A stretch of DNA of 64,000 bases. Origin: a virus. Taxonomy: Duplodnaviria > Caudoviricetes. The notes under the pieces were generated by a model. It had not been told where the DNA came from, did not search any database, and was given only the letters and a program-made list of their open reading frames with translations. The position numbers and the translations under genes were made by a program. Position 1 is the stretch's first letter. Every line of letters begins with the position of its first letter. Below, in pieces: positions 32,830-41,533 of this stretch. The stretch is taken from the IMG/VR virus record IMGVR_UViG_3300021399_000102, positions 64,001 through 128,000 of that record. One strand, 5' to 3'.

Positions 32830-33441
32830 TTATACATTGAACTGCTTTTTGATGAAGTCATATTCAATTGGAGCGCAATTCCAACGTTCAACGCAAGCGC
32901 ATAGCCGATTTGGGTCTATTGTGTTGAAGTATTTACTGCCGTGTACATGCCCATAGATGTTGATAAGTCCATCTGGAATCACGTCCAATGGCTCGTGCGA
33001 GAACACAAACTTTCCATCCAACAGGAAAGGATGCTTGAATGTCCTGTTGAACCCAAGCTCCTTCCAATCGTAGTGTTGCTCTCTATCGTGGTTTCCCATC
33101 AAGAGCCATATTCGTCCATTTAGCCTTGACACGATGTCCTTGATTCTGTTCTTGTTGCCAAAGGAGAAGTCACCCAGATGGAGAACCAAGTCTCTCTTTG
33201 AGACTTTTTCGTTCCACCTCTGAATCATGGCTTCGTTCATTTCATCCCTGTCCTTGAATGGTCTGTTGGCAGCCTCGTAGATTAAAATCCGACGATGGCA
33301 GAAATGCGTGTCAGATACGATCCACAACTTTGCGTCAGATGGCTTGAGATATTCAGACTTGCCCAAGTTGTTCTCTGCGCAAGGGACGTATATTGAACGC
33401 ATCCCTGTGTTGTTTGGCTCTCTGTTTGTTGCTTCGTCCAT
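32830..33441 (-). CDS. Calcineurin-like metallophosphoesterase (no TAG)
   Basis: SDTHF, LGDFS, GNHD, SHEP, YGHVH. Confidence 0.9.
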   Translation of the reverse strand: MDEATNREPNNTGMRSIYVPCAENNLGKSEYLKPSDAKLWIVSDTHFCHRRILIYEAANRPFKDRDEMNEAMIQRWNEKVSKRDLVLHLGDFSFGNKNRIKDIVSRLNGRIWLLMGNHDREQHYDWKELGFNRTFKHPFLLDGKFVFSHEPLDVIPDGLINIYGHVHGSKYFNTIDPNRLCACVERWNCAPIEYDFIKKQFNV

Positions 33442-35276
33442 TATGGTGTAACCTTCTCAAACGTTGGCTTCTGACCGGCTTGGCAACTCGTAAGCTTGTT
33501 CTTGCCAATGTGTTGGTCGTATATCAATCCATCTTCGTGGCAGCGCAATGGCTGCTTGGCAACCCCAAGTCCTGCGCAAAGTTTGCACACGATGTCATCG
33601 GTGTTCTCGTCTCCATGAACTATGGTCAAGTCAACCTTGTCCATCAATTCAATCATCAACTTGCCCAAGGCTCTCGGGTCTATGTTGTCCATGCCATCCA
33701 CCACAATCTCGAAATATGGCTTGCTTGGCTTGACAACTTCCTCCACTGGCTTCTCTGTTGCAACTGCCACCATGTTCTTGGGTGCTTCAACTATGGTTGG
33801 TGTTGGTGTGGGAGTTGTGTCTTCTTTCCAAACAGAAACGATGTGAAGTTCCTTATTCTTTGGCAAAGGTGGTGCTTGAATGACCTTCTCTGGCTCAACC
33901 TTGATTGCTTCTGCCGTGTTGGGGCAATCAACGCCATAGATGTAGTCGGGGGCGTTTGCGTACTTCTCTTCCAACATCGACTTGGTGTCGTAGGTGTCCT
34001 CTTCTTGCGTGTTGATTACCCTCATTCCATAGTTGTTCACGCCAGGAACAGGGACAACACCCTCCTTGAGCTTCAGCTCTTGCTTGAACACAGAGTAATC
34101 CACCTCGTGATGCCACCTGTGGAACTTCCACACGACCTTCGCCACGTCTGGGTGGAGCCGAGCAATCATTTCTGACTTCTCCTTCGTTCCATTGACGTAT
34201 ATTGAGGTCGTGTTTCCACCTTTAACCTTCATCGTAGTGGACTTTCCAAACAAAGCCCAGTTTGCAAGGACAGTACACCAACCATCCTTGAGTATTCGGA
34301 GCGAAAGGTCAGTGTCCTCGTTGAACCTCGCCCTCCACCTGTAGGGCTTCCCATCCTTGCCAACAATGTCGTTTCTGTTGAGGATGCAGGAGTAGATTCG
34401 TGTGTTCATCGTAAATGGGGCATGGTATGCATCCATCGTCACGAACATCTTGTAGTTCAGTCCAAACTGGCCAATGTTCTCGTATCTGTCCACGAAGTCC
34501 TCGCAAGCAGCAAGCAATGCGCCAGTACGGCACTTCACCTTCACGTTGTGCCAGAACCAATGGAATCCCTCTGTGGCGTTGTCATCCATAATCCAATGCC
34601 ACTTCGCGCCACGCCTTACAGAATCGTCCCAAACGAAGTTTCTCGCTGGACCAGACCCCTTTGGAAACTCTGGACCAACATCGTCGCAAGTGTCGTACCT
34701 GTCCTTGTAGCTCATGTCAAGCTGAAGCAAGGTTGCGTATTGGTTCTCTACGTGTGCCTTGTAGTCGTTGTACTCAGAAGGTTCGCAAACCACGAAATGC
34801 TTGACCTCCATCTGCGTGAGGAAGCGTGAGGTGTAGCATTTCTCTGCCCTTCCCTTGGAGATTACGTAGATTGGATATCTATGCTCTGAACTTCCACCAA
34901 CGACCCTCAATTGGGAATACCAACCTGGAATCAACTTTGGATACCAAACTGAAATCGTCTTCTCAGAAATGTTCTGGTCGAACAGCTTGTTGGCAAGCTC
35001 CAAGTCGCCCTCGTTGAACTTGAAATCAACTTGAGCATATGGGGGTGCAGAATCGTGGGATTCGTACATGGGCATCTGCCACCACTGGTCTTTCCACTTT
35101 GCATCCCTCGCAGAATCGTCCTTCTTGGCTTTCTTCTTTGCAGGTTTCTTCTCAACTTTCGTCTTGGAATTGACATCGTATTCCTTCGTCAAACAGGTAA
35201 TGTCCGTCCCATTGCGCTTGTTGAAATCATCCAATGCCTCTTGGTTGGCGAATCTGCAAATAATCCTCGTATTCAT
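33441..35276 (-). CDS. DNA-modification-type GT-A glycosyltransferase (TET/JBP-associated, GREB1-like)
   Basis: YPIYVISKGRA, ARNFVWD, HWIMDDN, RIYSCIL, WRARFNEDTDLSLRIL, KGGNT. Confidence 0.75.
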   Translation of the reverse strand: MNTRIICRFANQEALDDFNKRNGTDITCLTKEYDVNSKTKVEKKPAKKKAKKDDSARDAKWKDQWWQMPMYESHDSAPPYAQVDFKFNEGDLELANKLFDQNISEKTISVWYPKLIPGWYSQLRVVGGSSEHRYPIYVISKGRAEKCYTSRFLTQMEVKHFVVCEPSEYNDYKAHVENQYATLLQLDMSYKDRYDTCDDVGPEFPKGSGPARNFVWDDSVRRGAKWHWIMDDNATEGFHWFWHNVKVKCRTGALLAACEDFVDRYENIGQFGLNYKMFVTMDAYHAPFTMNTRIYSCILNRNDIVGKDGKPYRWRARFNEDTDLSLRILKDGWCTVLANWALFGKSTTMKVKGGNTTSIYVNGTKEKSEMIARLHPDVAKVVWKFHRWHHEVDYSVFKQELKLKEGVVPVPGVNNYGMRVINTQEEDTYDTKSMLEEKYANAPDYIYGVDCPNTAEAIKVEPEKVIQAPPLPKNKELHIVSVWKEDTTPTPTPTIVEAPKNMVAVATEKPVEEVVKPSKPYFEIVVDGMDNIDPRALGKLMIELMDKVDLTIVHGDENTDDIVCKLCAGLGVAKQPLRCHEDGLIYDQHIGKNKLTSCQAGQKPTFEKVTP

Positions 35277-35301
35277 GTCAGAAATCTCCTTGTTCCATGT
35301 A

Positions 35302-35853
35302 TTATACCACAAACGATGTGACTCCGTTAAGGTTATTTACCGAAAGGCTTGTGAAATCGGAGACCCTCTCTGTGTCAAACGCCACGATATTCACTTTCCC
35401 CTTGAAGTCCTTTACGAAGTTTCTGCAAGTGGTATCTATGCGTTTCGCTTGCTCCAACGTGAGTTTGTTTCCAAACTTCTGATTTCTGGCGAAACTCGTC
35501 TCTGGTGAAATGTGAATCCAGATTATCCCAACATCCACTCCATTCTCCAACAACTTGTTCATCATTGGACGCGAGACGCAACGCATTCCCTCCAGAACTA
35601 TGATCTTGTTCTTTGGCAGAAGGTTCATGACTTGTTGAGCGAAGTTTCCAACTTGCTTCCGTTCTACAGAATCAGTTCCATCGCGCCTCTTCTCGCCGGT
35701 GTCGTATCTTCCAATGAGAATGCAATCGTCAAACTCTGTATAGGACATCAAGTCCCGATTGAGTTCACCAGTTCTGCCACGGACAAATGTGTTTCTGACG
35801 AAAGATGACTTCCCAGAATGTGAGCCTCCTATTATGACAACGACCTTGCTCAT
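35302..35853 (-). CDS. P-loop nucleotide kinase
   Basis: IGGSHSGKS, GRYD..DGTD, VLEGMR; directly upstream of the glycosyltransferase. Confidence 0.7.
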   Translation of the reverse strand: MSKVVVIIGGSHSGKSSFVRNTFVRGRTGELNRDLMSYTEFDDCILIGRYDTGEKRRDGTDSVERKQVGNFAQQVMNLLPKNKIIVLEGMRCVSRPMMNKLLENGVDVGIIWIHISPETSFARNQKFGNKLTLEQAKRIDTTCRNFVKDFKGKVNIVAFDTERVSDFTSLSVNNLNGVTSFVV

Positions 35854-39594: not shown

Positions 39595-40107
39595 TCATTT
39601 TGTTTCTCCCTTGTTGTTCAACACATCTATTATACGCCTCATATCCTCAATCGTAAAGCCGTATCTCCTGTCGGTTTTCACAATCTTGTCTTTGTCAATA
39701 TATGGCTCTATGTCCACAATCTCGTCATCCACAACGCAATATGCGTCCACTTCTGGATGCTCGGCAAGCCATTGTTTGATCTCCATGCCCCTTCTGCCCT
39801 TTTTGTCGTAGCCAGTCTCGCCGGCAAATACTTCCTCCCTTGGACAGCGAAGTTTCTCTGAGAGAATGTCCCTCCAATTCCTGTCGGGTTGATATGGAGC
39901 GTAGTTTGTGTGGTGTCTCCAAGAGGATGATACCACAATCTTGCAATTGGTGTTGGCTATGATGAACCGAAGTCTGGCAACAAGTTCTGGGTTGAAGCCA
40001 TAACGCCACTCGTCAAGGTCAATCCATTCGTGACTGTCAGATGGTGTTGGGTACATGCAATTCAGAACCCCATCTATGTCCAGGAATAGAACCTTCATGT
40101 CCATCAT
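39595..40107 (-). CDS. HAD-domain protein (Swiss-army-knife RNA repair type)
   Basis: KVLFLDIDGVLN, IVVSSSWR, RGMEI..WL, YCVVDD. Confidence 0.85.
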   Translation of the reverse strand: MMDMKVLFLDIDGVLNCMYPTPSDSHEWIDLDEWRYGFNPELVARLRFIIANTNCKIVVSSSWRHHTNYAPYQPDRNWRDILSEKLRCPREEVFAGETGYDKKGRRGMEIKQWLAEHPEVDAYCVVDDEIVDIEPYIDKDKIVKTDRRYGFTIEDMRRIIDVLNNKGETK

Positions 40108-41533
40108 GCCACTTTCCTGTACACAGGCTTGTGTCCAGGCTTGAGCGAGACCATCTTGCTCTTGCCGAGATGGCGTTTGGGGATGTGCGACTCTCCCTTC
40201 TGAGTGGTGTAGAGCAGTTCGGTTCTGATGCCAAGTTCGCAGCAAATGTCGTTGATTGCCGTCTTTTCCTTTATCTTCCCATGCACCACGGTGATGTAGT
40301 TCTTCTTCTTCAGCTCCACAAGCATCTTGCGCATTTCCTTCATGTCGATGTTCGTGAGGGAGTCTATCACAATCTCTGTGTGGGGTTTCGTGGCGAAGTC
40401 CTCACCCATATACTCGTAGGAATACCGCTCGGAGTTCACGATGTACATGTTCTGATTCCGTCCATTGATCTTTCCATTGGATACATCGCCCTTCTTGCCA
40501 TTCCTCGGTCCTTCCTTCCAAAGGATGGAGTTCGCAAAATGGTGGGCAAGGGATTCGTGGGCGGTTCTGATGAACACCTTGTATCCCTTGTTCACATACA
40601 TCTTGCACAAAGCCTCCATGAACTTCGTGCCAAGTCCAAGCCCCTGGAAGTCAGGAAGTATGACCAGACGGTGAATTGCCTTGCCGAAGTTCAACGAGCC
40701 GTTGGGATATGGTCGGACCGCGCAGAATCCAACATATGCGTCATTCCACTTTAGAACCCAACATTCTGCGGCGATGAGAAGGTCGTGGCTCAGATAGTGA
40801 TGCGGAGCAAATATTTTCCAGACCTCTCGCTTCCGCTCCGGCTCGTCAATTCGCTCGAAGGAGAGGTCGATGCTTTTCCCAGGCAGAACCCCCGAAGGTC
40901 ATATATCTTTTCGGTGTTCAAGTCGATGAGGATGTCTGGCTTGAGCATTGGAATGATGTCGTAGTGGCAACCACAAAAGACCACATTCTTGAGCCCGTTC
41001 TTTCGGATGTACTTCTGAATGCTGTTGCTTGCGCTCATCGCACATTCCCTGTTGACCACGCTCGTGTATTCGTCAATCATGACCTTGGACTCAAGGTTTA
41101 GCGCAAGATCAGCTCGGAATCCCTCGCCTGTGGAGAGGACATTCCTTGGGCGGCACCACTTGGGGATTGAACTCAACCCAACAGCATTGAGTGTCGCCTT
41201 GCCCTTCTTGGGGTTCTCAGGGAAGTTGGAAATGATGGCCTTGGAATTGTCGTAGACCTTCTTGGGGAAGTGCCATCCTGCCTTCTCAAATGCCTTGAGG
41301 AATGTGGACTTTCCAGCTCCAGAAGGGCCGACAATCTGAATGATGTTCACATCCAGATTCAGAATCTCCTGTGGAATGACAAAGGGATATACCTTCGATT
41401 CCCCAGTGAACTCGTAGTCAAACGCCTTTTTGACAAGGTTGATTCCCTCGTCAATCGGCACTTTGCTCACCAATGGCACGTCACTTCGCTTCAATTTGCA
41501 AAGTACGGGCGCGTTCTCCCAACTTTCGCTCAT
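40104..41533 (-). CDS. ABC-type ATPase / GNAT acetyltransferase fusion via probable -1 frameshift at 40874-40880
   Basis: Frame 0: GPSGAGKST, LSTGE, IDEYTSVV, CHYD. Frame -1: WKIFAPHHYL..RLVILPDFQGLGLG. G_GGA_AAA slippery site followed by a hairpin. Confidence 0.8.
40821..40880 (-). promoter_or_regulatory. -1 ribosomal frameshift signal (slippery heptamer plus 3' stem-loop)
   Basis: GGGAAAA, 5-nt spacer, GACCTCTC-CTTC...GAAG-c-GAGAGGTC. Confidence 0.7.

Follow-up and report, generated by a model that had tools for sequence, protein, structure and literature searches.

On the minus strand of the window (the whole stretch of viral DNA analyzed, 64,000 nucleotides), the reading frame of an ABC-type ATPase overlaps a second open frame, lying at -1, which encodes a GNAT acetyltransferase domain. 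The features are listed in Table 1, with all coordinates checked base by base against the letters of the window. In the zero frame, the slippery heptamer is read through codons 218 (CTG, whose last base is G 40880), 219 (GGA, 40879-40877) and 220 (AAA, 40876-40874). The -1 frame has no start codon over 68 codons from its opening: its first ATG, GTG or TTG is the TTG at 40694, 60 codons past the slip and well 3′ of the W..F..HHYL motif. The predicted products are a protein of 247 aa and another of 220+256 = 476 aa (junction ..FCLGK/SIDLSFER.., the slash marking the slip). Every stop involved is a TGA, so that any reading of TAG as Gln would leave this gene unaffected. An earlier note on this DNA had described the in-frame G_GGA_AAA, a 12-bp bulged stem 5 nt after it, a -1 frame closed by a TGA and without start before WKIFAPHHYL, and products of 247 and ~476 aa; we found each of these elements in place. 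The junction peptide proposed there holds an internal Lys and hence would be cut by trypsin. The number of heptamers in the ATPase frame (one per 247 codons) is about that expected under uniform composition (1/256 per codon), and a position this close to the frame switch (within ~8 codons) would arise by chance with a probability of ~0.03.

Table 1. Features of the ATPase-GNAT locus, in coordinates of the window
Feature	Coordinates	Strand	Remarks
Zero-frame ORF, ABC-type ATPase, 247 codons	40790..41533	-	ends with TGA; the last 27 aa form a tail encoded in the overlap
TGA closing the -1 frame	40899..40901	-	6 codons 5′ of the heptamer
Slippery heptamer G_GGA_AAA	40874..40880	-	X_XXY_YYZ register; sole such heptamer in the ATPase ORF
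Spacer GCAUC, 5 nt	40869..40873	-	between heptamer and hairpin
Putative stimulatory hairpin	40821..40868	-	8 bp, one bulged C, 4 bp; variable loop of 20-23 nt; from folding and relatives
Candidate pseudoknot stem 2, GCUCCG	40803..40808	-	complementary to loop CGGAGC 40835-40840; from duplex search, weak
Zero-frame stop TGA	40790..40792	-	overlies the codon for Leu in the -1-frame HHYL
-1-frame part, 256 codons and TGA (40106-40104)	40104..40874	-	GNAT ~1-160, C-terminal α/β domain ~165-256
Next gene, HAD_SAK_2 phosphatase-like	39595..40107	-	its ATG overlaps the GNAT stop as ATGA

The ATPase half carries a Walker A motif (GPSGAGKST, residues 69-77), a signature (LSTGEGFR, 133-140), a Walker B motif (VMIDEY, 151-156) and an H-loop (CH, 189-190). 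Its profile matches solved ABC ATPases (best E 1.5e-14), and it aligns with positions 8-191 of phrog_11143 (E 1.3e-45), a family of 357 profile positions and unknown function. The -1-frame half aligns with positions 211-352 of the same profile, clears the Pfam threshold for Acetyltransf_1 (E 4.4e-10) and carries a Q/RxxGxG acyl-CoA-binding motif in addition to W..F..HHYL. Since both halves match phrog_11143, the family is normally one polypeptide, and the break observed here falls in its linker. Searches of NCBIfam and PADLOC returned matches at the P-loop level only, and no significant match was obtained when the sequences of solved structures were searched with the GNAT half.

The AlphaFold2 model of the -1 product (pLDDT 87.8) was matched by Foldseek to ordinary GNATs, RimI among them. 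In this model, strand β1 (residues 4-9) and helix α1 (residues 12-25) of the GNAT fold lie inside the overlap, and a start at TTG 40694 would remove residues 1-60, corresponding to four secondary-structure elements of the fold. As modelled, an intact GNAT fold is thus predicted to need the frameshift, β1 and α1 being unreachable from any ATG, GTG or TTG start. The C-terminal α/β domain that follows (40107-40380, residues ~165-256) is confidently modelled. Most family members lack this domain, which is shared by the window's clade and TR-TP1; a weak match to Pfam HTH_46 (E 0.0096) is the sole hint to its nature.

We compared the locus with 14 close relatives from independent assemblies (69-91% ATPase identity): L005, L010/L011 and L012 from IMG/VR, and L092-L101, ten metagenome contigs from other samples. 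ATPase and GNAT frames stand in the -1 relation in 14 out of 14. C_CTG_GGA_AAA is kept in ten of them (L005, L010/L011, identical here, L092-L097 and L101), and L012 and L098-L100 carry GCT_AAA_AAA_A in place of the heptamer, an A7 run that contains A_AAA_AAA. Both arms of the hairpin, GACCUCUCCUUC and GAAGCGAGAGGUC, are the same in all of them, except that the bulge is paired in one relative, while the loop of 20-23 nt varies freely. The conservation of slippery site and stem, which the earlier note had proposed to check, was found in all 14 relatives, as heptamer or A7 together with the arms, and lies far beyond chance. At the protein level, the zero frame is the better conserved 5′ of the heptamer (0.53 vs 0.35 for the -1 frame) and the -1 frame is the better conserved 3′ of it (0.77 vs 0.68 for the zero frame). 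Such a switch of the better-conserved frame at the heptamer, with a conserved signal, does not fit an assembly error or a recent lesion. A DNA-level search of the phage collection, with the gene or with the 20 kb around it, gave no match, and only protein-level searches worked. L005/L009, L011/L094, L012 and L098 lie on contigs of 414-434 kb, about twice the size of this 201.5-kb genome; these may be larger megaphages or head-to-tail assemblies.

Codon identity at same-residue sites was calculated from a codon alignment of the recoded gene (mean/expected 0.61). Over the whole gene it peaks twice, at 0.90-0.93 where slip site and 5′ arm lie and at 0.89-0.94 on the 3′ arm, and it drops to 0.65 in the hairpin loop. 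These values are to be read with the dual coding of the overlap in mind, since this alone raises synonymous conservation and counts against the frameshift reading. The arms also encode conserved residues (DLSF, KREVW). The hairpin of the window folds at -20.8 kcal/mol with a z of -1.7, a moderate gain over shuffles (13 of 200 as stable), and the same hairpin in relatives reaches z of -2.6 to -3.4, all 12 pairs being preserved in 10 of 10 distinct relatives. The 86-nt context of the window folded no better than shuffles (z 0.15). No covariation of the hairpin was seen in the window's own clade, where the arms are invariant; compensatory pairs, two in number, were observed only between L024 and L048, which belong to another clade with different stems. 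Pairing of the loop with downstream sequence (CGGAGC/GCUCCG) was the best duplex in all 10 relatives, with z of only -0.3 to -2.6, and a loop-to-downstream pseudoknot in the window is possible, though statistically weak. All ten relatives have the core of this pair (GGAGC/GCUCC), in differing codon registers, and GCUCCG lies 12 nt past the stem in the window.

The frame relation was then tallied over the 91 loci, from isolate phages, IMG/VR and the window, in which both halves occur. The halves are in frame in 61 loci, at -1 in 30 and at +1 in none, counts of related loci and not of independent events. In a quick maximum-likelihood tree of the family, the -1 state is found in at least four clades spanning branch lengths of 0.2-1.2: one with Oenococcus, Lactococcus P335 and Streptococcus Javan phages, one formed by L007 by itself, the window's clade plus Thomasclavelia TR-TP1, and the loci with T9 runs. 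Shift-prone motifs of several kinds lie at this one domain joint (G_GGA_AAA/G, A_AAA_AAA, A_AAT_TTT, A_AAG_GGC, T9, and G5 or C5 runs) and are swapped inside clades (GGGAAAA for A7, T9 for A_AAT_TTT, A_AAG_GGC for a C5 run). In every -1 locus, the zero frame stops on the Leu codon of the -1-frame W..F..HHYL, and the GNAT frame is open and conserved as protein, at identities down to 45%. In-frame, fused homologues show continuous protein across the joint. No ATG, GTG or TTG precedes the conserved motif in the window, L004, L005, L012 and L055. We also searched protein clusters covering 5.8 billion proteins. Each of the 120 best clusters (51-96% identity) lacks the GNAT and is a short form, 204-332 aa in length; 117 of them finish with ITI, III or FTI, the hallmark of the stop over HHYL.

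The signals at the joint differ in their surroundings. In loci with a canonical heptamer, a strong stem lies 3-6 nt past it: one of 13 bp after the A7 of L014, one after the G_GGA_AAG of L007, and stems of 10 and 11-12 bp, differing in sequence, after the A_AAT_TTT of L024 and L048. The median fold z is -2.26 for heptamer loci, below the -0.57 found for in-frame loci (p 0.0075) and the +0.76 found for T9 loci (p 0.0005), both comparisons resting on few, related loci and being indicative only. This difference emerges only when heptamer and T9 loci are split apart; whole-segment folding energy did not separate -1 from in-frame loci as groups, the in-frame ones being lower in raw energy. The pattern fits ribosomal frameshifting at the heptamer loci and slippage without stimulator, perhaps by polymerase, at the T9 runs. 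In the T-run clade, T9 is out of frame in 13 loci (L017, L020, L021, L023 and others) and T10 is in frame in L025 and L039, so that the frame is toggled by the length of the run itself, which would also allow phase variation or polymerase slippage. No canonical heptamer was found at the joint in the G5 loci (L001 of Thomasclavelia TR-TP1, L013 and L015; YTG_GGG_GAR) nor in the C5 loci (L003, Lactococcus P335 Orf24/25, and L004, Streptococcus Javan464; TWC_CCC_CAC). For the C5 run of P335, a pairing partner (GUGGGGG) lies downstream.

In a single assembly, a one-base indel would produce the same frame picture, the true sequence then being one continuous frame such as GGGAAAAA or another in-frame variant. 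We give virtually no weight to this explanation: genomes of isolate phages and all 14 close relatives, independently assembled, show the same frame relation, and an A4 run is not error-prone. A real but fixed frameshift mutation would leave the ATPase as the only product, with the GNAT a dead remnant or rescued by background error only. Although the in-frame majority of the family makes it conceivable that the split is a lesion, the GNAT frame has stayed open over 256 codons and under protein conservation in all the -1 loci, no locus has gone to +1, more than 110 clusters keep the split, and shift motif and hairpin are themselves conserved; a mere lesion is thus very improbable.

Two separate genes, as called by database annotation in TR-TP1, P335, Vinitor-27 and Javan464, would require the GNAT to start at a non-standard codon in the overlap (e.g. 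CTG 40886-40884) or by reinitiation. A TTG does overlap the stop in L002 and L003, but it is not conserved (CTG, TTA or CTA elsewhere) and its use would still delete β1 and α1. The five loci lacking any standard start ahead of the motif, the window included, and the fused homologues that run unbroken through the joint also speak against this arrangement, to which we attach very little likelihood. Transcriptional slippage, in which RNA polymerase adds a base so that part of the mRNA encodes the fusion as a single frame, as for Thermus dnaX, finds its arguments in the relatives: T9 (13 loci) or A7 runs occupy the same joint, T9 loci have no hairpin, and their T10 versions (L025 and L039) are in frame. 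Polymerase slippage requires a run of roughly 7-9 bases, however, and the window offers only G3A4, too short for the known process, followed by a conserved hairpin at ribosomal spacing. For the window, we hold this route to be very unlikely as well.

We consider it highly probable that the locus is one gene of the ABC-ATPase/GNAT family, expressed via a programmed -1 ribosomal frameshift that gives products of 247 and 476 aa. The earlier note had proposed that the GNAT is reachable only in this way, and comparison across the family, with -1 loci in several clades and none at +1, as well as the position of β1 and α1 in the overlap, lend support to the proposal. Conservation of the arrangement in more than 110 related clusters is best read as that of a programmed feature and not of an error. 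The anatomy of the locus, its conservation and the onset of the GNAT fold within the overlap are shown here; that the slip is ribosomal, how efficient it is and that the two products are used are inferred.

According to this frameshift model, most ribosomes would stay in the zero frame, stop at the TGA at 40790 and yield the 247-aa ATPase with its short tail. In a fraction of them, the hairpin 5 nt downstream would impose a pause while GGA occupies the P site and AAA the A site; the two tRNAs would then slip back by one base, re-pairing on GGG and AAA, and reading would continue at -1 to the TGA at 40104, giving a 476-aa fusion of ATPase, GNAT and C-terminal domain. A single ABC-type ATPase dimer might contain both the short and the long form. 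A point against the model is that, in E. coli, which may not represent the host of this phage, X_XXA_AAA shifts less readily than X_XXA_AAG. As only frameshifted ribosomes would terminate at the ATGA (40104-40107), translation of the HAD_SAK_2 gene could be coupled to the frameshift.

A bolder proposal, to which we lend only tentative credence, is that recoding at this joint arose or was kept many times (at least five kinds of signal), under selection to fix the ratio of ATPase-only to ATPase-GNAT protein. The outcome might be an asymmetric ABC-type dimer with a single acyltransferase head, a dosage device similar to that of dnaX within a phage nucleic-acid modification enzyme, and one that, in this phage, may also gate translation of the overlapping HAD phosphatase gene.

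Concerning function, Iyer et al. (2021; PMC7824862) described phages, Tenacibaculum pT24 among them, in which a GNAT is coupled with, and fused to, an ABC ATPase, treated ABC-GNAT as a member of the GNATs apart from Mom, and predicted for the ABC ATPase-GNAT an uncharacterised modification in which a DNA base is acylated. Phage pT24 is itself a tblastn match of the window gene, and the JGI label of the family reads ‘ABC-type ATPase with predicted acetyltransferase domain’. In isolate phages, the gene adjoins DNA methylases, a ParB-like nuclease, DNA polymerase or terminase. In the window, a protein of 623 aa is encoded 5 kb from the gene (33441-35312, minus strand); Pfam detects in it a TET-associated glycosyltransferase domain (TAGT, E 3.5e-35), as would fit a hypermodified phage DNA. 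This genomic context is compatible with the predicted acylation of DNA bases.

The mechanism proposed is of a known kind, its closest counterparts being lambda G/GT, dnaX and the OrfAB of IS3-type elements. To our knowledge, few phage genes outside the tail chaperones use programmed frameshifting. The gpG/gpGT tail chaperone of phage lambda, as Levin et al. reportedly described in 1993, is made by a -1 shift at G_GGA_AAG. Both cases involve a phage gene, a -1 ribosomal slip and a near-identical heptamer (that of L007 is exactly G_GGA_AAG), and in both the longer fusion has its N-terminal part in common with the short product. Gene family and role are unrelated, however, and in the present case a conserved hairpin follows the heptamer and about two thirds of the sampled family are plain in-frame fusions. 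The OrfAB transposase of IS3/IS911, also treated in the recoding review PMC5009743, is likewise produced by -1 frameshifting. There too, a heptamer with downstream structure serves to fuse two functional domains and the zero-frame product is a separate protein; here, in contrast, no transposase is involved and the downstream ORF is without independent start. For dnaX, tau and gamma are obtained by A_AAA_AAG and a hairpin in E. coli, and by transcriptional slippage on an A run in Thermus (PMC5009743). The likeness lies in one family giving two products by heptamer and hairpin or by a long homopolymer run, depending on the lineage; the difference, in the shifted dnaX product being the shorter one, whereas the shift here adds a whole catalytic domain.

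Regarding the protein itself, both window halves match the ABC ATPase-GNAT family (phrog_11143; PMC7824862), but the description in that paper is of a fused protein and we found no mention of recoding in it. Similarly, no description of recoding in this family was found in the 2016 recoding review, in the PRFect paper or by full-text searches. Mom of phage Mu, a GNAT-fold DNA adenine modifier, is likewise a phage domain of the GNAT superfamily with a DNA base as proposed target, but it has no ABC ATPase partner. The label ‘Mom-like’ given by the earlier note was not upheld, as Pfam (generic Acetyltransf_1/7/10) and Foldseek (RimI-like matches, from a structure library that may lack Mom) showed no Mom-specific similarity.

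For annotation, two ‘genes’ of which one has no start would become one recoded gene. The recoding enzyme family thus delineated would be widespread, from jumbo phages to phages of Lactococcus, Streptococcus, Oenococcus and Thomasclavelia, and its lineages differ at one and the same joint, some with a classic heptamer and hairpin and others with long homopolymer runs. It forms a natural series in which ribosomal and transcriptional slippage can be compared. For the phages themselves, our results suggest that the proportion of ATPase relative to ATPase-acetyltransferase is of importance, in an enzyme predicted to modify phage DNA.
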